A stretch of DNA of 63,994 bases, filler included, from Dimargaris cristalligena (Eukaryota), in assembly GCA_003614675.1 (NCBI GenBank). It is 6 parts of 6 records of this genome, joined end to end, with 100 filler letters (N's around TTAATTAATTAA, not from the genome) between each part and the next. Parts side by side here need not be neighbours in the genome. Positions count along the whole stretch, not along the records: positions 10,950 to 21,797 come from ML003146.1; 5 more parts are not named here. The stretch is one strand, 5' to 3'. A program made the position numbers and the translations under genes. The first letter of the stretch is position 1; each line of letters begins with the position of its first letter. Below are positions 10,850 through 27,100 of the stretch, piece after piece. A model generated the notes under the pieces. That model was not told the origin of the DNA and did no database searches. It was given only the letters and a program-made list of their open reading frames with translations.

Positions 10850-10949
10850 NNNNNNNNNNNNNNNNNNNNNNNNNNNNNNNNNNNNNNNNNNNNTTAATTA
10901 ATTAANNNNNNNNNNNNNNNNNNNNNNNNNNNNNNNNNNNNNNNNNNNN
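10850..10949. other. Artificial contig linker
   Basis: 44 N + TTAATTAATTAA (stops in all six frames) + 44 N. Confidence 0.97.
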
Positions 10950-12288
10950 GCGTGTAGAATAGGAGGTAGGCGGTTTTGGCCAGTACCTGTTTAAGACTGA
11001 TGCTGCTGACGCTACTATCGTCCATACAGTACCAGGCCCCTGATGTGGCTTTAATATAGCAGTAATAGTGCCCGGAATGACAGCTTGAGCCCGAGTGAAC
11101 CAAAACCCCGTACAGGCTATAGCGGGTGTTCATCTCGACGCCCTTGCGTGACGGACTGATGTAGGGCGCCAGGTCCAGGGTTTCGGGGTACTCAATGTGC
11201 TTGTTTATTTTACCGCCGCCAAACATGGAGTGGCCAAAGTCGAATCGCTTGAGTTGGATGGTGAGGACCTCGGGGGTCTGATAAATAGTGAGTTGCTTGC
11301 GGGCCTCCACCAGAACCTGGCATTTGTCGCACTTGTATTTGTTGCGACCGTCCAGGAGCTCCGGCTTGGTGAAGGTGGATAGAGCGCGCTGAATGGAGCT
11401 ACAGTTGCGAACCTCCAGGCTCAAATCGAGCAGGGGATCGAAGGTGTTGGAATCGGCGTGACACCGACTGCAGCGGATCTGGCTCTGCAAATAACCGCCG
11501 AAAATGGCGTGCACCAGGGTGGTTTCCTTGACGCGGGCGTCGATTTTGCTGTTGAGCCCGTTTAGGCATGAGGCCTGCATCGCTTCCACGACGTAGCGCA
11601 AAAACTCGTGCGAGTCCTCCTGACGGCCCACGCGCATGTGCTTCGCAATGGCCTTCAGACTCCCGACGATTTTCTTGGGACAAATGGCCCCACTCTGCTG
11701 GTTCAGTTCAAACGAGCGAATGACGTGACGCTCCAGTTCGCACATCATACAGAATACGTTGCCCTGGCGGCATTGGCGCGAGTGCTCCTGGCTAAGCAGG
11801 TAGTTGGCCAGCGGCGGGGTATAGGTGAGGCACTGAAGCACGGAGTTGAGGAAACAGGTGTTCCCCAGGTTCTGCAGACCCGGGCCCACTTTGCGGACCG
11901 ACTGCCAGGCGGGGGTTAGGCGGCTCTTCTGAAATAGAGAGTGGGCCCCCCGGCGGAATCCGCTGACGGGATCCACCAACGGTTGAAGCAGGTCCGGCTG
12001 CTTCGAACCGGCAGCGGCACCCTGGGATAGGGTGCGGGATAAAGCCGTGGGGGACACGAGCCGTTTGGCATTAATGGGGCGGTATTTTTTACGCAGGTTA
12101 TCCATTTTGGTATCGGGCCGGGTGGATTCTTTGAATTCGATACGACGGGTCAAAAAAACGGCGACTTCGTCTGAAGTGACAGCAGGTCCGCCCAGGAGTT
12201 GGTCAATGCCAAGGGAACCTGGGTATTTGGCCTTGGAACCGGGAGTTATAGGGCTCGCGACGGACGACTGAACTAACGACGGGGCCAT
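10950..12288 (-). CDS. Ubiquitin-specific protease (peptidase C19), USP36/USP42-like; C-terminus truncated by contig end
   Basis: Start MAPSLVQ at 12288; Cys box GLQNLGNTCFLNSVLQCL, RQEDSHEFL, CxxC zinc ribbons, LTIQLKRF, His box GVLVHSGSSCHSGHYYCY, WYCMDD. Confidence 0.93.
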
Positions 12289-13347
12289 GTAAAAATAAAT
12301 AAAGGTATCGTGACACGCACAAAAATACAGACAAACACGCACACACAAATAGCCACACGAGGACGCGAAATAAAGTTAGGCAGGAACCAAACTTAGAGCC
12401 GTTCGGAGTTGAGTGGAACGGCGGCGATATTAAAAGTCGCGAAACCTCGGTTCTGGAAATGGAGGGAGCAGCAGAAGGGCAATGAAGCAGCGTAGAGTTG
12501 ACTGGTGGCTAGAAAAACGGGGGTCTCGGTAGTATTTCGGGTATACTCGCCTATGTATGATATGAAGAAAATTTATAAAGGTTCCTCTTTTTTTCTTCAA
12601 ACATCTCTTTACTGCTTCGATAGGGCGATATACATTAGTGAAAACCAGGCCTTTTGCCACTGTGGGTTTTTTTTAGATAGAGAGTAATCTAGGCGAAGTG
12701 GATGGGTATATTATTTGTCAAATATGCCCCAAGATACAGTATAATTTGCCCAGTAAGACAGATTGGCCTGTCCACAGAGACCCCAAACCCACCAATCAGC
12801 ACTAATCGCCAATCAACCAGATGCCGGCTAATTGCCCTTCCTCACGTGACCGGCGACTTTCTATTGTGGCTGGTTTTTAGGCAGGATAGTGCCCCCGGCT
12901 GGTTATACTATACTATTCAATCCCAGCAGGAAGTTGGTCCACTATTTTGGCCTGCTCATAAACCCACGTTTATTAACGGGCAGTCCTGACTTATAAAATA
13001 CCCGCCTTATAAAGTGAGATTGGAACATCTCAGTATAATCCACATTTTGAAAAAGCGGGGGGGGGGGGTGTCGAATCGACGCTGCAAAGCACACACAAGG
13101 TGCCTTAAGGTAGCCTATACTACAACCTCATGTATATCTGTTTTCATGTGCTCCACCAGTAGTTTGGTCGAATTTGCACTTCTGCTATCCGGTTTATTTA
13201 AAACGCGACAGCCAGTAATATAGTCTGTTGAAGAAATACAAATAAATATTTCAAAAAACAAAACAAAACAAAAACAGCTCGACAATATCCGAATAAGGCG
13301 AAGCTATACGGAAGTATGGCCTAGATGTAGTACTGCCATGTTTATTA

Positions 13348-13626
13348 TTATTTGGTCGACTCGCTATCCCCGTTTTTCCATTCTTTAAATTTGTTATACG
13401 CTGACTTTATGACAGCCCCTGCGGCCAAATGAGCAGCCACCCCCAAGCCGAATTTACCGACCTTCTTGACCACCGAGCTAGAGCCACCTGTACCAGCGGC
13501 ACCTGACTTACGGCGATGGAGAGACATTACATGGTCCTGGGCTCCGGTATGGATGGGCTGGGGCTGAACAGTAGACGCAAATAGGATGAAGCCCAGTATG
13601 GTGGTGGTTAGCAAGCGGAGATGCAT
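13348..13626 (-). CDS. Small secreted protein (92 aa): signal peptide + propeptide + basic site + cationic amphipathic helix
   Basis: MHLRLLTTTILGFILFASTVQP signal-like N-terminus, HRRK Kex2-like site, then SGAAGTGGSSSVVKKVGKFGLGVAAHLAAGAVIKSAYNKFKEWKNGDSESTK; start context AACATC-ATG. Confidence 0.7.
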   Translation of the reverse strand: MHLRLLTTTILGFILFASTVQPQPIHTGAQDHVMSLHRRKSGAAGTGGSSSVVKKVGKFGLGVAAHLAAGAVIKSAYNKFKEWKNGDSESTK

Positions 13627-16012
13627 GATGTTGGTGATAATGAGACGAAGCGGGGTGGTCGACGGGGTAGACGCTTTCCTTTCTTTTGTTTTCTTAAATG
13701 TTGAGACAAGATAATGGTCTAGTGATGAATTTTGCCTAGATTGTGTACATGAAAGCACGTTAAACCCAGTAGTCCGGTTCAATAGATAATTAGATAAATT
13801 ACATTTAGTGAGCCAGGGGGTGCTAAAGCCATGCGGAATAGGGGGTATAATTGCGTGGCTGGAAGTTTATCGAGTATAATGACAAGCTTACCTTTGAAAT
13901 GAGGATATTTAGTCCTATATGCCTAGAAGTGCAAAAATGCTAATGAGATATGCAATTGACTACTGTTCACGGAGCAGGATCCTATATATATATATGTATG
14001 TATGGATCGACAAGCTGCCCTATGTTGCTATAGTTCAAGGTAGTCTAGATCCTTTTGGACAGAGGAAAGGGACGGTAGGGTAGGGGATGAGGTCTATCCT
14101 TGTTTAAAATACTAAGCTGATCTTCGAACTGGCTGCTGGATTTTAAACTAGCATGTGCGGGAGGGGAGTTTGGCCATACTGGCGCCAGTATCCCTCTGGT
14201 CGCGGCTAATTACTTTGGCGGCTGCTAGGCGGGAGAAGACTGTTCCCCTATTATAAGAACAAGAAGAAATTGGCCAAGCGACACACTGCTTGAGTTGATC
14301 AACCAAGTTTTTTATAGCCCTTGGCCATTGACGGGTTTGCTGAGCGAGTGCGGCGGTATTTGGTGGTTCTTTCGCCGCAATATCATAATTCCCTGATAGC
14401 ATTGCCTGCTTAAATTGAAAATAAGTACTGATTATGTGAGGGTGCTAATCCATTTAACAAAGCCAGTATGAACAGGGCGAGTTGGATAGGCCGCCTTGAT
14501 GGGACAGTTAAGGTATGGTGGGGGGAGGGGGTTTGAACGGCCAACTCCATACCATTTTCCTTTATCATTATTTCCATATTGGTTGGAGGTAGATTAGCCT
14601 CGTCTTGATGTTGGCTCGCAATTCACCCAACGTGGAGTTAACAGATAATGGGGGGAGAGGGCCCCTAACTATCGGCAATTGGTGCTATTTTTAGAGTCGT
14701 TGGTCTAACTGCAATACAGACTATCAAAATGAGTCGGCTCCATACTTTGCCGGTTAGTAAAATAGGAGTAGATGCAGGAAAATACAGGATTGGGGCCCTC
14801 AATCCGTCAATCCTTTTGGTATTCTATGCCCCCCTCTACTGTAGTCACTCCCCCAAAACCTTACACATTGTGCATGGGGTTTACGCGGACTCCGAGACCA
14901 CCGCGAAGGTGGGAGTAGTACGACTAAACCAAGTGCAGATACCCCAAGGTGGACTCGATTAGTGAATGTCGTCCCCCGACGTTGGTACAGACCTCCGAGT
15001 GGCGTGGTAGTGGTCAAGTAGTCGAAGGTGTTCCGGTCGGGCTTGCAACTACACAATACCAGTCATTCGGGTTAGGCATGCCTACTTAGCGTACCAAAAA
15101 ACTAGGAGTTGTTGAACCACATTTTCTCTACCATAAGTAATGACGAACCAATTGTCGTCAAAATTAAACCCCTCGCGAAAAACTCAGGCTGCTCTCTTAA
15201 ACCGTGGAACTAGTATTTTTCACTTCCTCCCTTTATAAGCAGATAAGCTTAACGAATACATTACAGAATCTATCAATTGGCAAAGGATCCACCAGCTGGG
15301 GGGCTATGATTTTTCGTAAGGCCAGGCTTGCATTGATTTGGTATGGAACTTATACATAATTGGAGAGAGGTGCGTAATTTATACGCCCCCTTCGTTTTCT
15401 AACGAAATACCGTTAAATCTCAAATTTTTGATTACAGGTGCCCATATTTTTAATATACGGTGCTGATCATCAATATCTTTTAGTAATAATTGCAAGGCAT
15501 GTTGACGAACTCGTCCAGCTAATATAGTTGGATTGTCTTGGTGTGCTAGGATTTCTAGGCGCATCACCGCCAGTCAGGTGAGTCGCACCGGCATGGGTCT
15601 TGCGCTTGGGCTTATACGTAACAGGCAGCCAAAGGTACCGTCCGTATAGGAAGAAAAGGCGAGAGGGTCCTCCGCTTATCGAGTTCCTGCCATACATTCT
15701 GTCACTTTCACCTTCTTCAAGCCAATAGCTGTTACAGAGAGCAGACTCACTCCGCCCACTTTGTAGCTTCCCTTGATCTCATCCTCCAGTCCCGCCGAAC
15801 CCAAGCTCCCTTTTCGTTATCTTTGCTTGCTGAATTCTCTTTCTGTTTTGCATTCACTTACCAAGGAAGAAAGCCCCGCCTACCAGCTGTCCTCACTGTA
15901 GCTCACCAGCATATTCCCAAGTAGCATTCCATTCACTGGCTTATATTATAGCCCTTGGTTCTTTCTTTACAGTTTCAGGTCACCCCTCCAATTTCTATAA
16001 CTATACAGCAAC

Positions 16013-19000
16013 ATGGGTCGGAAGAAGGGCGGACGCAAAGCTCAGGACGATTACTGGTAAGTAGGATCTCTATTCTCTTAAACCCCGCTTCTGGGATCCC
16101 CTCCCCCCTGACCTCCACGAGGCCCGTTGTACTATGGTAGTCGGTCGGGGTGAGGTCAAAAACCCACTTAATTTTTACCTCCAGGGGTGACCCCGCCGTT
16201 CCAATGTCGACAGCCTTCTCACCGAGTGAATCCCCTATGCCATGCGTTACTAAACTAGGGATAATGAGTTCGAAGACGACCAGGCCATGCTGGTCGAGGA
16301 AAAGTCCAGCGGCGAGGAAGCCGGCGACGATGGCGGTCTAATGGGCCTCATGGGTCGTTCCAAGAATAAGAAGAAGACTAAGGGCAAGTCCCGCTTCGCC
16401 GCCCCCGAGTCAGAACCTGAGCTGTCCGAATCAGAATCCGAGCCTGAGCCTGAGCCTGAGCCCGAGCCCATCCCCACACCTGCTAAAAAGAAGGGCAAGG
16501 GTAAGAAGGGCAAGGGTGCTAAAGTAGCCGAAATCCCCGACTTCGAATCCGAGCCCGAGGAGGTGCTTTCGGAGGAGGAAATTCCCCCGGCCCCCACGCT
16601 GGCCCAGAAGAAGGGCAAGGGTAAGAAGGGTAAAGCGGCCGCCCCGGTAGAAGAGGTCAAGGCTGTTGTTGCTGAACTCCCGAAGAAGGGTAAGAAGGGC
16701 AAGGCCGCCGCCCCCGTCGAGCCCGAACCCGTGCCCGAGCCGGTTGCCCCGACGGATGCTGCTGATTCCAAGAAGGCCCCCAAGGGCAAGAAGAAGAACA
16801 CCAAACTGACGGCTCTCCAGAAGATGGTCGAAGCCCGGAAAGCGGCCGAGGAAGAGGCCCAGCGTCGCGCCGAGGAGGAGAAGCGTCGGCGAGAGGAAGA
16901 GGAGCGCGTGCGAGCGGAAGAAGAAGAACGGGAGTATCTGGCCCTAAAGGAGCGCAAAGAACAAGAAAAGGTAGGGCACCTGTGACATTGGTTGTCGGCG
17001 GTGACGGTTATTTTGTTTGTTTTACCCACCGTGTTCTCTGACTCTCTCTCTCTCTCTCACTTATCGGCCGATGGGGTTGGATATACCATGGGCCAATAGC
17101 TATTGTAAATAGTACTATCCAAGGGAGCCCATCTTGTCCTAGCCTCTTAGTGTCTCTGGGCTTTAATGGCCTGCTGCTTACCGGTTTCTAATTACCCTGT
17201 CTGAAATCTTTGATCTATGTGAATGGTTTCCAATCTACTTCATCTAGGCCCGCAAAGAAAAACTTCGCAAGGAAGGAAAGCTCCTGACCAAGGCTCAGAA
17301 GGAGGCCCAGAAGCGAAACACTGCCCGTCTCCAGCAATTGCTCGACTCAGGTGTCCAAGTCGCCGGTTTACAGTCCAAGAATGCCGAGGATTCGGACAGC
17401 AAAGTCAAGCCCGCTAAGGGTAAGGGCAAAGGTAAAGGCAAGGGCAAGAAGCAAGAAGCTTCCGTGGACGACGTCGCCGAATCCGTTGCCGAACTTAAAA
17501 TTAAAGAGGTTGCGGAGCCCATTCCGGAACCTGAGGCGAAAGAGGATGACGATGGCGACGACGACTGGGAAAAACTATTGGAGAGCAGCGAAGATGAAGA
17601 AGTCGAGTCTAAGCCCGCAACCGCTGCAACTGCGGAAGCCGACCAATCAGAAGACGACAGCGAGGACGACAATAGCGACGATGACGATTCGGATGACGAC
17701 AGCTCCGATGAAGAAGCCACTGCGGCTGAGCGGGCCGCTTTCCAGCGCAAGCAAGAAGCCGCCGAACGCCGCGAGAAGCGCCATCAGGCGGCTTTGGAGG
17801 CGCGCAGTGCCGACGATTTGCGGTCTCCCATTTGCTGTATTCTGGGGCATGTTGATACTGGTAAATGTTTCGGGCGTGGAACACATATTCTGATGGCTGA
17901 CGGGTCGGAGCGTGCGGTTGAGACCATCGTTGACGGAGAGTACGTTTTGGGTGACGATAGCACTCCTCGCCTCGTCACCGGTACAACCCAGGGGCGTGGC
18001 CCCATGTACCGCATCAATCCTACTTCCGAGGCCCTGGCCCAAAGCTTCGTTTGTAACGACGCCCATATCATGGTGTTGCGGTTACCGAACGAACCCCAAT
18101 TGGTCAATGGTCATAATGCCGACTCCGCCCATGGTGCCCTAAAAGTCCGCTACCTGACCCTAAATACCGCAGCGGTCCTGTCGGAAAACCACATGGTAGT
18201 TGAGCAAAACCAACTCTTTACGTATCCGTCTGAAGCCCACCCCGACCTCGCGTCCGCTCTGGACAGTGCCCACTCCACTATGGCCCAGCTTCGCACCGCA
18301 AAGTCGGATATTCACTGGCAACCCAGTGTAACCACTTTCCTGCGCGCATCGGCTACGGTCCAGGCCCTTGCCCGGATGTACCACCCGGCCCAGGTGTCCG
18401 CCATCCGGTCCCAGGGCCCCTTCATGCAGTTGGTGGGACCCGCTCAGGCCTCTGAGCCCGAGTCTCTTAAGGACCTGGCCCACCTCGCTGGTGTTCACTT
18501 TGCCCAGGGCCCTTGGTTCGCCTGTGCCCCTAAAACCCTGCCCAACGACGGGGTTGCCCATCTCCTCCAAGGCTTGAGCTTCGCGGAATACCTGGACATG
18601 TTCCGTTGGGAAGATTCTGAATTGGTCCGCGACCCCTTCCTTACTAGCGTATTGACCACAGCCGGTAAATTGACGTCCGACGGTACTTTGTACTCGTTGC
18701 CCCTGACCGATTCCAAACTGGCCCCGGCCCTCGCCGTCATCCTCCGCGCTGGCGGCTACCAAGTCCTGGGCACCTCCACAGGCCTGCAGGTTACCGCCAA
18801 CTCCGGTCCCAGTGCCGACCTTTCCCGGACCTGGTCCTTCACCGTGTCTGCCTTGGGTGAAGACGACTACTTCGGTTTCTGCGTCGACGGCAACCATCGT
18901 TTCCTGCTGCCCGACCTGACCGTGACCCACAACACCAAACTCCTGGACAAGATTCGCCAAACCAACGTCCAAGAGGGCGAAGCCGGAGGTATCACCCAAC

Positions 19001-20694
19001 AGATTGGTGCCACTTACTTCCCCATGGACGCCATCAAGGCCAAGACCGCCCTGCTCAACAAGACCGGCAAGGTCGAATACAAAGTACCCGGGCTCTTGGT
19101 GATTGACACCCCTGGGCACGAATCGTTCACCAACCTGCGGTCGCGTGGTTCGTCGCTGTGTAACATCGCTATTTTGGTCGTCGATATTATGCACGGTCTG
19201 GAACCCCAGACTCTGGAATCCATCCGGTTGCTCCGCCAGCGTAAGACCCCCTTCATTGTCGCCTTGAACAAGATTGACCGTCTCTACGACTGGAAACCAG
19301 TGCCCAACAATCCCTTCCGCGACAGTCTGGCCCTGCAGAGCAAGTCCGTGCAGCGGGAATTCGAAACCCGCGTGGAACAGACGCTGGTGGCCTTTGCCGA
19401 ACAGGGTCTCAACGCCTGTCTGTATTACAAGAATAAGAACTTGGGTAAATATGTGTCCTTGGTCCCGACTTCCGCCATCTCCGGCGAGGGTATCCCCGAT
19501 CTCCTGTTGCTCCTTGTCAGTCTGACCCAGTCCCGTATGACGGAGAAACTCATGTACCTGTCGGAACTCGAGTGTACCGTGCTGGAAGTGAAGGTCATTG
19601 AGGGCCTGGGTACTACCATCGATGTGGTGCTGTCCAACGGTGTTCTTAACGAAGGCGACCGTATCGTTGTGTGCGGTCTCAACGGCCCCATCACTACCAA
19701 CGTGCGGGCCCTACTTACCCCCCAGCCCATGCGCGAACTCCGGGTGAAGTCGGCCTACGTGCACCACAAGACCATCAAGGCGGCCATGGGGGTGAAGATC
19801 TGTGCCCCCGATCTGGAGAAGGCCATCGCCGGTTCGCGACTCCTGGTGGTCGGTCCCGATGACGATGAAGAGGACCTGGAGGATTTGGTCATGGAGGACC
19901 TCGAGGCCATGATCAATTCCATCAAGAAGGTGGACCGCGGTGTGTACGTACAGGCCTCCACCCTGGGCTCCCTGGAAGCGCTCCTCGAATTTTTGCGCAC
20001 TTCGGAAATCCCGGTCTCGGGTATCAACATTGGTCCGGTGCACAAGAAGGATGTGATGCGCGCCGCCACCATGTTGGACCGGGCCAAGGAGTACGCCGTC
20101 ATGCTGTGCTTCGACGTCAAGGTGGACCGCGAGGTCATGGAACTGGCCACCGACTTGGGGGTCAAAGTATTCACGGCTGAAATCATCTACCACTTGTTCG
20201 ATCAATTCAAGGCCTACTCCGAAGCCATCACGGAACAGAAGCGGAAGGACCAGGCCCCCCAGGCCGTCTTCCCCTGTGTGCTCAAGATGATCCCCGGGGC
20301 CGTGTTCAATAAGCGCGACCCCATCGTGATTGGCGTGGATGTCATTGAAGGCGCCTTGCGCACGGGCACCCCCGTCTGCGTGGTGGAAGAAGACCCCGAA
20401 ACCAAAGAAACTCGTACCGTGTCCCTCGGTAAGGTCACCAGTATCGAACAGAACCATAAGCCCCAGGAAATCGTCAAGAAGGGCCAGGCAGCCGGTGGCG
20501 TGGCCATTAAGATTGAACTGCCCGTGTACGAGTCGTCCAAAATGTACGGGCGGCACTTTACCGATAATCAAGAAATTTACTCCCTTATCACGCGAGGCTC
20601 CATCGATGTGCTCAAGGAGTCATTCCGTAAGGACGTGTCCAAGGATGAGTGGGCCCTGATTGTGCGCCTCAAGAAGGTCCTCAATATTGCCTAA
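16013..20694 (+). CDS. FUN12: Eukaryotic translation initiation factor 5B (IF2 homologue), intein-containing precursor (about 1400 aa; about 1044 aa after splicing)
   Basis: Exons 16013-16056, 16259-16970, 17248-20694 join in frame. Charged N-terminus; [16 protein letters not shown] / [64 protein letters not shown]. Confidence 0.97.
17866..18933 (+). mobile_element. Intein (356 aa, class 1, VMA1/PI-SceI-like Hint) with degenerate LAGLIDADG homing endonuclease, inserted in the eIF5B Walker A motif
   Basis: In-frame insertion [21 protein letters not shown]...[11 protein letters not shown]...[30 protein letters not shown]: block A Cys1, block B His, block F, block G His-Asn, +1 Thr. Confidence 0.96.
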
Positions 20695-21797: not shown

Positions 21798-21897
21798 NNN
21801 NNNNNNNNNNNNNNNNNNNNNNNNNNNNNNNNNNNNNNNNNTTAATTAATTAANNNNNNNNNNNNNNNNNNNNNNNNNNNNNNNNNNNNNNNNNNNN
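21798..21897. other. Artificial contig linker
   Basis: N44-TTAATTAATTAA-N44. Confidence 0.97.
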
Positions 21898-22463
21898 GGT
21901 GATGAAGCAGTGAATTTCGAGAGAGCTTAGGATTTTAATTTTTTTAAAAAAGCGAAATATTTCAACTAAATTCTGGACTCAATTTTAATAATCGGGCCTA
22001 GCTTCCCCCACCATTATAGCACATTAAAATTTGACTAGGTAGTGAGTGATGCGGTAAAATAATTTGGCTGCAAAAATGCCAAGTCCACCAGGGGTGTTTT
22101 CCCTCAAATGTAGGGGAGCAAGGGGGGGGGAGGAAGAGTGACAACCGGCGACTAAAAACAGTGTACCAGTTGAAGGTTTAGGCAGCATAAGACCGGCCGA
22201 AAGTTGGAGAAGAGCCAGTGGATATTATAGCCCAGCCTTCCCTAAGCCTCCCAGCAGTGAAAACAGGTTTCCTACACCGAATATACTGGTACGTTTAGAC
22301 TATTCCCAATTCAGTACCTAAGAGCAACCCAGGGCGATTATTACTCAACCGATGTATTGGATTTTATTAAATTCTCGTTGGTCCAAATGACTATTGTATT
22401 AACCCTTTTTTTTTGTTTTTGAGTATATAGTTATACCAAATGAATATTACAAACCAGCTTATG

Positions 22464-24108
22464 CTATATGGTTCCTACGAGTTTGGAGTTAGCCCGGAGG
22501 AATTTCCCAAACACATCTTCCATGAGCAGCTGGGAAACTTCATCCTTGGCGGCGTCGAACATGGTCCAGTGGAACTGTTCCCGTTCCACCATGGCCTTTA
22601 AGGGGGCGAGTGTCCGACCGCTGATGTTCACCTCCCACGCCGACCCGTCGACGAAGTAGCGCTCGTAAAAGCAGTAGTAGTCGATAGCCAGGTCAGAGGG
22701 TATGGGGTGTTCAGCGGCAGGGCCTAGGTCATGGACAATGGGGTTCGGGAGGAGGGAGACGCGGCAGACTTCCGGTCGTCGCTCTTCGGGCCCCGAATGA
22801 TCGGAGGTGAAGCCACTGGTCGTGGTCGCGTTCGGATGCGCAGGGGGGGGAAGCTCGCGGATGCCCGGCCGTCCCTGGGCTCTCACTACCGCCGAACGTA
22901 GCTTGGTCATGATCCGAATTGCGGCTCACAAACCACTTTCCAAACGGACTGGGGGGGATCGGGATGATGGCTTCGGTGGATATGTTCCAAAAATTTTGGT
23001 AATGGGGTGGGTTCTGGCTTTGGTTCCGGTGGCGGCTAGACAGATCCGGAAGACGGTAATTGGGAGCGAACCGTTTCAGGGGTTTCTCAGCACTCATGTA
23101 CTCGACTGACTTGGCCTTTAGTCTCTGGTAATCGATGAGAAAAAACGGCAGCTCCGTGCAGAAATTATTTTCGCAAAACTTGCAGAACAGGGCCACTAAG
23201 TCGGGGTCGTTGATCACTTGATAAAATGTCGTTTGGTTGTGAAGAGAGAGGAGACCGTGGGTGCGGTATTCGCGCTCGGCGCGCAGCCAGGGAATAAAAA
23301 TGGAGGATACCTGGATGACCGTCACACTAACGGAGGGAAATACGAGGCTGGATAAGGGATAGGGAAACCCGTTGGGCACGAAATTGCAGACGAGAAAGAA
23401 GAGGTCAAACACCATACTGGTGCAGCAGGTGATGATTAAGTCGTTGCGCATGTAATACGCGTCGCGGATGTTCCGCATCATGTAGATGAGAGTCGGAAAA
23501 ATAACGGCAATATACAAGCAGCTTATGGTGGTAATCGGTAAACCCTCCCAACCCAGCGGACAGGCCATTTGGTTGGCCAGCAGGCCGAAGTAAGGGGAAA
23601 TGACCAAGCCGACCACCGCGTAAATCATCAGGGGGCTGGACAGGGCAAACATGTAAATAATCACCCACTTGTCGTCACTCAAGACCCGTGCCACCTTATA
23701 GTGCCGCTCCCAGAAGTCGGCGGGCCGTTCGGGATGAAGTAGGCGTTTGACCTTGGCGCTGGCCGTTTGTGCCATGGCAATGAGGCGCAGAGCGCGGGCA
23801 AAGAGCGCCGTGTGGACATAGTAAAATCCGAAATAGGACCCAATGTGCGCCACGGTACAGGGTACATAGGCGAGATTGCGCGACAGGTAAAGGGCGCAGA
23901 CTAGAGTAGCGCATAACCCGGTTACCAACGCCAGGGCCACCGAGCGCTTCTGGAGGTCCTTGCTGGTACGGCCGCGGTACCAGAAGAGACCCGTGGAGGT
24001 GAGGTGAAAAAGACAGACAATCACTATAATAGGAATGACGACGGCTTCGCGTAGAGCGGCATGCTCGTAATCCAGGCCTGGTACGATGACTTTGATTTGG
24101 GGTGCCAT
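22464..24108 (-). CDS. Seven-transmembrane receptor fused to an RGS domain (GprK/AtRGS1-like architecture); needs a 55-nt intron or a 1-nt frameshift correction
   Basis: ORF 24108-22729 has about 7 hydrophobic segments then RGS N-half (FYQVINDPDLVALFCKFCENNFCTELPFFLIDYQRLK). ORF 22910-22464 carries the RGS C-half (YERYFVDGSAWEVNIS...MFDAAKDEVSQLLMEDVFGKFL). Confidence 0.85.
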
Positions 24109-27100
24109 AGTGATAAAAGAAAAAGGGGCCTCAACCGCTCAGTCTCCGTTCACAGAAAATAAATTTAAAGGCTACCCCCGAGTAGGAGCGGGAAGAGACT
24201 GGCGTGGAAGGTATGTAAGTATGCGATACAATCAATTGCAACGACGAAGGTACAACTACTAAGTAATATTCGGGTGGTCGTATTCAAAATATTGGAAAAA
24301 ACAGCAACAAAGCTTTAGCTAACAGGTTTTCGTGAGTGTGGGGTATTCCAAGAGTGGTCACATACATAGTCGCGAGGGGCCCTTATTGTTGAGTGGGGTT
24401 GAAATTGATGGCGAACCAAGTACAAACGAAGAAGCTAATTGTACTTTACAGGGTTATTACGCTGGGACATTAGACCATCCACGGGCCACACAGTATAGAG
24501 AATGGAGGGCGGAAAATGTAATACGCTCGGCAGCGGGGGGTTTCTCCTAAGTAATAGCTACCTGTGAATGTGATTAAGATTTGAGTCCAATACCAAGAAT
24601 TGAAGAGCAGTAAGGCGCACAGACTGGTTTACAAACGGGTAATGTGGTTTCGCCTGTGTGCCAGGGGCGGGGTATGATGTGAAGGAATAGGGGGCACGAG
24701 TCCGAAAAATACTAGTCAAGCGGATGCAAGGGTACCCCGGGGCAGAGGATCGCGGTTGATATTAGCGAATAGACTGGACCATATGTATATATATAGAGAG
24801 AGAGTGATATATATATATATATATACTAATAAATCCACTATATAACGTAAAAGAGGGCACTGGATATAGAAGTGGCCTGGATCGGGAAGGGGCAAGTGTG
24901 GTATATAATCATTTATAACGTACAATACAGGTATTTCAAACGGAGGCGGGTTCTACACTCGTTCTTATATAATTACCACCTACAACATAACCTTCCCTGA
25001 TCTTAGCCATGCTCTTGCGCCCCTTTCAGGTGACATGTGGTTCAACGATCGCAGCCAAAAAAGGGTAATTAAAGTATCTGCGAGGCCATAGTGCCACTAC
25101 CGCATGCCCTTCGTAAACCTGAGCTGTCATAGCTGAGTAGCGTTGGCAAGGGTGCGAATCGCCCCTACCCATATTTTGCAACCCTTCTTCTCTAACTCGT
25201 TTATATATATATATCTGAATAAACTCATCATTCATTTAGATTTTATACTTGCTTTCGTCCCTTTTCTCAGCATACCTATCTTTGTGGGTATCACTGTTTA
25301 GAAGTAATTGGCTCTGGAAATAACTTGCACGCGGTTGCCTGCGTACATTTTTCTATACTTTGGTATTAAATTACGAATAGTAAGCTTACCATTTGGTGAG
25401 TTCAGCCCGGCCGAATTATTGGCATCCCCTAACCCTTTTTAATATAGAAAATGTGGGGTAGTGGGGTGTAGACTATGGCGTGCTTACCTGTATTTAAACC
25501 GTACATCGATGGATAGATATGCAGTTACGTGGAACATTAGTACAGGAGGCGAAGGTGGCAATATTATACGCCAGTCATTGCACCAAGTCATTTTTTTCCC
25601 GATCAGAGAATCGCTGCACTCCACCAAAATACGCCATTTTTTGAATATTGGCTGAGGGTATGCATGGCAGTTGTGTAGTAAGGCTGATTTCGGCGGGGGT
25701 CTCAATTTATACACCCAAAAAGCCAAATCCCAATGCCATTTATCCGACAATCGAAATGTGGAGGCGATATATTATATATACGGCCATCGACCGATCCATT
25801 CTCCTTTTTTATCTATTTCGCTAAATATGCGAGACTATCGAGGAAGTACACACGATTATATTTAGGCATAGTCGGCTCCAAAGTTATCATATTATATATT
25901 AGTGTCATTTCCTCCAACCATGCTATCGGTGGGCTTGGTCGGGGTGGGGGGAGGTATTTGGGATGGCAGCATATTTCTTATCATTTGGCCATGCGATCCG
26001 AACAGGGCTAAACTCAGCGACAACAGTCAACACTATTCGGCCGTTTAGGATAATCTGGTGGCCCAGTGGAATTGATCCACCACCCCTGCCTAATAAACTA
26101 TTAATAGAACCGAATACAGAATTCTGCCCCTTGGCTGAAGCGCCAGCATGTCGCTACTGGGGCCGTTTCCCCACCTTTCTGCTAAATCAATAAACAGCCA
26201 TATGTATAGAAACTGTCTCTTTGTAGTCTTATTTATGTATATGTATATATATACTAAGGCATGGTCAAGAGTCGGCATCTGGGCGAGGTAAAAGATTTTT
26301 GTGTATAGCCCACAGATTCATCTCAATATTATTGATGAACATACTATTACTGTAGTGAAATCGCATAGGTTAGTCCCGTTTATTATTATGGAGATTCTGG
26401 CATTCACCTCATGTCAACTTTCATTTTTTTCTTAAAAAAAAGGGACTGCGAATAATAATATAGTGCCTAAAACTCCGTTGGCCACTCCTTAGAGTTTCTC
26501 TGGTCGATTCCAATATGCTACAAAATAAATCACTGTCAACTATACTTGGACTACAACCATTTTGGTATGACCATACCAGCTGAAAATCAGACCAACCACT
26601 CGACTGTTAATGCGGGGAATCGTCCACATGTCACTATGCCAGCGAAATCACGTGCTCAATAAATATTCTAGTGGATTGAGTCTATTATACCGAGGTTCCT
26701 GAAGTGTAGATATCCCGGGCCAGGCGGGCCTTAATTCAAATATCTCTTATAGTGCGTTTGCTTTGGAGTTTCTCGATAGGCCGTTGGCTATATTTCCTTG
26801 GGTATCAGAGTTTTAAAAGTGGCAGTTATGTATTAATGTTACCCGGAGCTATGTAATTTTTAGATACGGGAAGGCAATATCATGTAGGCAAAATACAAGG
26901 GCAGTCTAAAATGTGCAATTCATTTCTGTCACCGTAGCCATTCCGATGGCGCCCCACTCCCATCTATAATTGGCAGGGTGCTATATGATTTACATCACCA
27001 CCAGCAGCAGTGACGAACTTTAGCATGTCTCCTTTGTGCTTTAGTTTAAAAACACCATTTTTACCCGTCGGAGGCATATTGGGCATATTGTAGTCGCCTT

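Follow-up and report, generated by a model that had tools for sequence, protein, structure and literature searches.

The eIF5B gene and the position of its intein

In the window (i.e., the whole stretch of 63,994 nucleotides of Dimargaris cristalligena DNA analysed here), a gene for the translation initiation factor eIF5B was predicted from the sequence on the plus strand, with three exons that join to one open frame. Exon 1 (16013..16056) starts with the ATG at 16013 and is followed by a 202-nt spliceosomal intron (16057..16258) with a GTAAGT donor, a branch-like CTAAA and a terminal TAG. Exon 2 (16259..16971) encodes an N-terminal region rich in Lys/Glu, and a second, 277-nt GT...AG intron (16972..17248), whose junction is the same in the public protein model P0082, precedes exon 3 (17249..20694), which encodes the end of the N-extein, an intein, the C-extein and the stop codon. 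The joined exons encode a precursor of 1400 residues, with the intein at residues 459-814, and a mature eIF5B of 1044 residues. Because two GT-AG introns upstream of the intein join to this 1400-residue frame, the host gene is nuclear and eukaryotic, as an earlier note on this DNA had proposed.

The insert (17866..18933, plus strand) consists of 356 stop-free codons, begins with Cys and ends with VTHN. It is preceded by GHVDTGK (17845..17865), the first seven Walker A residues, whose Lys is the -1 residue, and is followed by TKLLDKIRQ; one frame of 1148 codons spans them all. In each of the other five frames of the insert there are 3-16 stops, and 356 consecutive codons without a stop have, by chance, a p of about 5e-5 at the local composition. 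Translation reproduced exactly what the earlier note had described, i.e., a 356-residue in-frame insertion between the Walker A Lys and Thr with block B (CNDAH) and block F as quoted there, and with Thr at +1, where TKLLDKIRQ begins the C-extein. The Walker A Thr binds Mg-GTP in P-loop GTPases, and in the D. cristalligena protein the same residue (18934..18936, plus strand) is also the predicted splice nucleophile. The C-extein of 586 residues (18934..20694), which comprises the remaining eIF5B G domain and domains II-IV, matched a solved fungal eIF5B with an E-value of 8.5e-256, and the flanks of the intein matched the Pfam families GTP_EFTU, IF-2 and EF-Tu domains 2 and 4. In 63 fetched intein-free homologues, the Walker A motif reads GK-T without any insert. 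The third-position GC content of the intein (70%) lies between those of its exteins (59% and 76%).

A search of the genome returned one eIF5B match, while two other matches were distant GTPases (44% and 30%); hence no intein-free eIF5B copy was found in this assembly of 2220 contigs. An empty second allele of eIF5B, or a paralogue, may exist in an assembly so fragmented. By eye from their translations, neighbouring minus-strand frames look like a ubiquitin-specific protease (10894..12375), a small secreted protein (13348..13866) and a protein that has several membrane segments and an RGS-like tail (22729..24138). Positions 21799-21898 of the window read TTAATTAATTAA between two runs of N, which resembles a scaffolding linker.

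Intein class and predicted fold

The Pfam profile PF05203 (Hom_end_hint) matched residues 1-355 of the intein with an E-value of 7e-28 (98.6 bits; cut-off, 32.1). Among solved structures, PI-SceI (the Sce VMA1 intein) was the best match by sequence (E 5e-11) and by fold. The intein model, predicted with AlphaFold2 from a 51-row alignment (mean pLDDT, 91), aligned with PI-SceI over 334 residues (Z 28.7; rmsd, 3.6 A), with which Foldseek agreed, and with the splicing domain of the Cryptococcus Prp8 intein over 141 residues (Z 22.3; rmsd, 1.5 A). The VMA1-like character that had been read from short motifs, and for which a Hint-profile check had been proposed, was thus borne out by the PF05203 match and by the PI-SceI-like predicted fold.

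The N-terminal splicing region (residues 1-75; 17866..18090) contains Cys1 and the block B sequence FVCNDAH with Cys63, Asn64 and His67. Asn64 and His67 are invariant across the 51-row alignment, and the region is 59-71% identical to those of five other Dimargaritales inteins. It is followed by an insertion in the splicing domain (residues 76-175; 18091..18390), delimited by the whole-length structural alignment to PI-SceI, which is 34-39% identical within Dimargaritales and which presumably occupies the position of the DNA-recognition region of PI-SceI. The C-terminal splicing region (18826..18933), with blocks F and G, contains His344, His355 and Asn356 and is 67-81% identical within Dimargaritales. 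The His-Asn end was present in 41 of 41 extracted inteins, partly by construction, as this motif was used for the extraction.

Class 1 inteins have Cys/Ser at position 1, a block B His, a terminal His-Asn and Cys/Ser/Thr at +1, and the D. cristalligena intein has Cys1, His67, His355, Asn356 and Thr+1. It is also an in-frame insertion that is absent from homologues, and it has the Hint fold according to both PF05203 and the predicted model. It was thus assigned to the VMA/Prp8 (Hom_end_hint) type with a class 1 motif set. Class 3 inteins carry the triplet Trp B12, Cys F4 and Thr G5; this chemistry was rejected, as the alignment reads Met at B12 and Gly at the F4 position, so that only the Thr of the triplet is present.

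The D. cristalligena intein resembles PI-SceI in its whole-length predicted fold, block A, the Asn-x-x-His of block B, the Gly-containing block F and the His-Asn end. It differs from PI-SceI in host gene and site, in having Thr at +1, where PI-SceI has Cys, in being 98 residues shorter and in having lost the nuclease motifs. With the Cryptococcus Prp8 mini-intein it shares the splicing domain, by the predicted model, and the block B Cys; the Prp8 mini-intein, however, lies in another host protein and is without a nuclease remnant, and it is for the Prp8 intein that metal inhibition has been shown.

The intron of the public gene model

The C-extein is identical over its 586 residues to the public D. 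cristalligena protein P0082, in whose model positions 17867..18862 (plus strand) are cut out as a GT-AG intron; removal of this stretch reproduced P0082. Taken at face value, the public model would make the segment a spliceosomal intron and its Hint likeness a relic, and the model of Coemansia spiralis likewise omits most of its insert. The resulting P-loop of P0082, however, would hold 24 foreign (intein) residues after the Walker A Lys and before the Thr, and its donor, GTTTCG, does not resemble GTAAGT and GTAGGG, the real donors of the gene. When all 440 GT-AG, GC-AG and AT-AC pairs around both intein ends were tried, 149 gave junctions that were in frame and free of stops, and none of the 149 restored an intact Walker A motif. 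Moreover, the frame is open and both intein ends are conserved at the protein level. An intron at this place is therefore very unlikely, and the one in P0082 is, judged from these junctions, most likely an annotation error.

Other public models are likewise broken close to the junctions, for example those of Coemansia spiralis (P0282) and Dispira parvispora (P0014) and those of several glomeromycetes. Because gene callers turn the intein into a false intron and leave a broken P-loop, intein counts taken from annotated fungal proteomes are too low. In P0003, unrelated sequence directly follows the terminal His-Asn. From a published Rhizophagus eIF5B model the final residues of the intein are missing, an absence that its authors found puzzling (PMC5784728, supplement 2). 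Together with P0003, that model suggests that a spliceosomal intron may lie at the 3' junction of the intein in glomeromycetes.

A decayed homing endonuclease

What the earlier note overlooked is a shrunken, decayed LAGLIDADG endonuclease domain at about residues 176-320 (18391..18825, plus strand). In the 41-intein alignment, its block C remnant (18478..18510) has Gln214 and its block E remnant (18628..18666) has Thr264 at the positions where motif-bearing relatives have Asp, so that neither of the two LAGLIDADG acidic residues is present. No Pfam Hom_end or LAGLIDADG match was found in the intein at E<=1, while a nuclease domain was matched in five of seven relatives scanned, the two without it being dimargaritalean. 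Within Dimargaritales, the nuclease region is 22-26% identical, compared to 59-81% for the splicing regions. Neither acidic residue was present in the inteins of Dimargaritales (6 of 6) or of Mycoemilia. When a motif pattern was applied to the 41 inteins, the block C Asp was found in four, the block E Asp in 16 and both in three, none of which belongs to the lineage of the D. cristalligena intein.

Given that the predicted model aligns with PI-SceI over 334 residues, a nuclease-like domain remains, and this is the one observation that would fit an intein that is still mobile by an active endonuclease. With both catalytic acidic positions replaced (Gln214 and Thr264) and the nuclease domain shortened and without a Pfam match, such mobility is highly improbable.

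The three inteins with both LAGLIDADG acidic residues (P0249, P0232 and P0133) also matched Hom_end, and from their sequences they are candidates for an active homing endonuclease at the eIF5B site. P0249 grouped with Mucorales in the extein tree.

When the genome was searched with PF05204, only Prp8 was matched, and a search with PF14890 revealed no further intein. The Prp8 gene (L003:1-2401; G000:C1431) contains two further inteins. The first ends before CQVF, i.e., at site b of PMC10710043, and its start is off the contig. Near L003:446-483 its frame changes, which may be an assembly error, a small intron or a real break. The second, 32 residues downstream of the first, is complete with 386 residues.

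Distribution and published eIF5B inteins

The residue after the Walker A Lys was Cys in 48 fetched eIF5B proteins, including that of the window itself and partial models, and Thr in 63; because the last homologue search returned the best 120 of 7642 matches and ranked intein bearers first, these counts are uninformative on the frequency of empty sites per group. Intein bearers included all six Dimargaritales species retrieved, Mycoemilia, Spiromyces, 28 Coemansia entries with the full insert, ten glomeromycete species, two Mucorales (Benjaminiella and Cokeromyces recurvatus), Sorochytrium, Batrachochytrium dendrobatidis, Anaeramoeba and Chilomastix, while the named intein-free proteins were mostly from Ascomycota and Basidiomycota (i.e., Dikarya). 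The rarity that had been claimed for nuclear inteins thus does not hold in early-diverging fungi at this site. Inteins at the same site were also observed in non-fungal or unplaced eukaryotes, i.e., in P0271 (Chilomastix cuspidata), P0242 and L090:1-2157, none of which is mentioned in the passages of the papers compared.

Inteins of eIF5B have been published for B. dendrobatidis, B. salamandrivorans and Rhizophagus irregularis, hence for Chytridiomycota and Glomeromycota (Green et al., 2018; PMC5784728, Table 1 and supplement 2); the main text of that paper contains neither 'Dimargaris' nor 'Zoopago'. The D. cristalligena intein is like them in host gene, site (the C-extein TKLLDKIRQ), intein type and Cys1, and the B. 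dendrobatidis protein P0263 and the published C-exteins have the same junctions. Its phylum, Zoopagomycota, is new to that published list (PMC5784728). It groups with the Rhizophagus lineage and not with the Batrachochytrium lineage, and differs from the Rhizophagus clarus intein, which keeps the block E Asp, in having neither Asp. Outside fungi, an eIF5B intein is on record for Anaeramoeba ignava (Gallot-Lavallee et al., 2023; PMC10710043). It is like the D. cristalligena intein in site and type, but distant (62 bits, compared to 226-236 bits for five other Dimargaritales), and it forms a long branch of unsure position. The text of the supplement of that paper yielded no match to a further eIF5B intein, and its figures and dataset may list more (PMC10710043).

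The suggestion that the D. cristalligena intein is a new allele was not upheld: the same site is already occupied in two Batrachochytrium species and R. irregularis (PMC5784728, supplement 2), and the proteins of B. dendrobatidis and Anaeramoeba have the same junctions. It is a real intein and a new occurrence of a published allele, and the additions made here are modest. For the lineage that the earlier note had called under-sampled, Dimargaritales, an eIF5B intein is unreported in the literature searched, and for Zoopagomycota or Mucorales no report was found among the matches listed. Also unreported there are the breadth of the distribution, the loss of both LAGLIDADG acidic residues, the host-tracking descent and the existence of two lineages.

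Phylogeny of inteins and exteins

Of 62 proteins inspected, 41 yielded inteins. For the first intein tree, 11 of these were dropped (eight from Coemansia, P0003, a truncated Gigaspora model and one from Funneliformis) and five non-allelic inteins were added; four long branches were left out of the second, and both trees were built under LG+G4, a model with one substitution matrix rather than a mixture. In the second tree, the six Dimargaritales inteins formed one clade (99/98). The earlier note had called for an intein versus extein phylogeny, and this comparison revealed the same three pairs in both trees: D. cristalligena with Tieghemiomyces, one Dispira with the other, and the remaining two Dimargaris with each other. 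In the extein tree, the six-species group was supported by only 86/93, with two members on a long branch, and the order among the pairs was not resolved. The two are P0011 and P0083 (Dimargaris xerosporica and D. verticillata), 61% identical to the D. cristalligena extein, whose eIF5B proteins, but not their inteins, sit on a very long branch (0.7); this may reflect fast evolution or a paralogue. Read from these trees, intein descent within Dimargaritales appears to be vertical and to track the host gene.

Beyond Dimargaritales, the inteins fell into two lineages. The first comprises Dimargaritales, Mycoemilia, Glomeromycota and P0242 (87/85), within which Dimargaritales and Glomeromycota are linked at 93/90. 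The second (100/99) comprises Coemansia, Mucorales, Sorochytrium and B. dendrobatidis; each of the three inteins that have kept both acidic residues falls within it, and it is at odds with the host tree. In the second tree, 28 eIF5B inteins, those of Batrachochytrium and Rhizophagus among them, were split from three non-allelic inteins at 100/99, which argues for common ancestry. In the first tree, which included the four long-branch rows, one non-allelic intein fell inside the eIF5B group; the single origin of both lineages is therefore less sure than the link between Dimargaritales and Glomeromycota. The intein data rejected a Kickxellomycotina clade (AU p 2e-38), whereas the extein data (24 rows) did not (p 0.30) and rejected the lineage 2 host set (p 0.008); these p values are optimistic because the tested groups were named after the trees had been seen. 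Outside Dimargaritales, the trees are best read as pointing to at least one transfer or replacement, in either direction.

Dimargaritales parasitise Mucorales such as Cokeromyces (PMC9866270 and PMC6784888), and the eIF5B of Cokeromyces recurvatus has an intein at the same site, as would be expected if the D. cristalligena intein had recently been acquired by horizontal transfer from a mucoralean host, or if it were host DNA present as contamination. A clade of Dimargaritales and Mucorales inteins was, however, rejected (AU p 8e-44, optimistic as above), and host-to-parasite transfer with it. Between D. cristalligena and Cokeromyces, intein identity is 14% across the nuclease region and 47-50% in the end regions, below that with any dimargaritalean, and the D. 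cristalligena extein is 90% identical to that of Tieghemiomyces, compared to 73% for Cokeromyces. A gain from the host is thus extremely unlikely, and vertical descent remains the preferred reading. Kinesin and fumarate reductase clustered beside intein-bearing eIF5B, and an intein jump between genes was considered; the five such proteins that were read, out of ten fetched, all lacked an intein, and the clustering was read as cluster chaining.

Inteins at the same site in archaeal aIF5B

An intein has been noted in the aIF5B (IF2) of Pyrococcus abyssi (PMC9226500). When metagenomes were scanned with a P-loop pattern, at least 120 loci were found, 80 of them with full flanks. Complete inteins were found in 27 of the 123 loci examined (three viral): 26 were of the archaeal aIF5B type, as judged by their short N-terminus, and one (L090) was of the eukaryotic eIF5B type. 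The 26 archaeal-type inteins share the insertion site, between the Walker A Lys and Thr. The best of them matched the D. cristalligena intein with 0.6 bits, compared to 75-95 bits for inteins of unrelated hosts, and against a profile of fungal eIF5B inteins they scored at most 22 bits, compared to 181-214 bits for four non-allelic inteins; they were thus no closer to the fungal inteins than are inteins from other sites. The two that were scanned matched Intein_splicing and LAGLIDADG_3, and not Hom_end_hint. Descent of the fungal inteins from archaeal aIF5B inteins was rejected on these bit scores and different Pfam families, and the archaeal and fungal sites appear to have been invaded independently.

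Prokaryote genomes scanned with the C-extein contained five bacterial IF2-like loci and no archaeal intein, and in viral contigs the P-loop pattern was matched three times, each time at once followed by a stop. In several metagenome loci (L025, L036, L039, L050 and similar ones), the frames read QPEVNIGTAGHVDHGK and then Cys; these resemble archaeal aIF2-gamma whose Walker A motif would be interrupted by an intein at the corresponding position. A preference of inteins for P-loops, with 15 inteins in archaeal aIF2, is described in PMC4760082, and PMC10710043 describes a transfer between the SRP receptor and eIF5B in an ancestor of Rhizophagus and homing among P-loops.

Splicing, persistence and the question of a switch

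The most probable account, and one that we hold with considerable confidence, is that the single eIF5B gene carries an old class 1 intein (VMA/Prp8 type) that is predicted to be capable of splicing, and that this intein homed in, lost its nuclease and has been inherited vertically since. Every catalytic step would follow known intein chemistry. The mRNA would be translated into the 1400-residue precursor, in which Cys1 would attack the Lys-Cys bond (N-S shift), assisted by Asn64 and His67 of block B; the N-extein would pass to Thr+1; Asn356 would cyclise, assisted by His355 and His344; and an O-N shift would restore the normal loop, GHVDTGK-TKLLD, in a 1044-residue eIF5B. The precursor would be unlikely to bind Mg-GTP because Lys and Thr are not joined. 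The intein would have arrived by homing in an ancestor, before loss of the endonuclease and vertical inheritance. It would persist without homing because nothing short of an exact deletion gives back a functional P-loop; selection would therefore keep the splicing domain while the nuclease decays.

Splicing is most likely prompt and unregulated. Active sites are the usual location of inteins, for which a regulatory role is unnecessary. It could be proposed instead that the intein was domesticated as a conditional switch, with zinc, copper or oxidation of Cys1/Cys63 stalling splicing and limiting active eIF5B and subunit joining. In favour of this, all six of the Dimargaritales species retrieved have kept the intein although its nuclease is dead, and 46 of 48 eIF5B inteins have the block B Cys, a retention beyond what plain splicing would obviously require. 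That Cys, however, is also found in 29 of 104 other inteins and is therefore common in unrelated hosts. In reporter assays, Cu and Zn inhibited the Cryptococcus Prp8 intein, which has the block B Cys, but Cys1 alone was enough for the effect of copper, and the C61V variant spliced as well as the wild type (10.1101/502781). Because 80 of the 104 other inteins also follow GK, the GK site is a general homing target. The 63 intein-free eIF5B proteins, the named ones mostly from Dikarya, also speak against a switch, and blocked splicing would affect new protein only. A switch is thus unlikely, and prompt splicing remains the preferred reading.

A fuller version of this idea is likewise quite improbable. 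In it, the intein would have stayed fixed from the Dimargaritales ancestor onward, or perhaps from an older one shared with Spiromycetales and Glomeromycota, with its nuclease no longer working, because it became useful as a Cys1/Cys63 metal/redox sensor that gates production of active eIF5B; meanwhile, a second, still-homing lineage would have occupied this site in Coemansia, Mucoromycotina, Blastocladiomycota and chytrids. If true, protein splicing would here control a translation factor of a eukaryote.

Dozens of proteins from early-diverging fungi have an intein at the eIF5B site, for which the 2018 survey listed three fungal inteins. The value of the D. cristalligena intein is comparative, as it belongs to a vertical lineage with a dead nuclease that can be set against a lineage with intact-looking motifs that is at odds with its hosts. 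The two lineages offer a natural experiment on why inteins persist once homing has ceased, be it entrapment or benefit, in a gene that can be moved into yeast.
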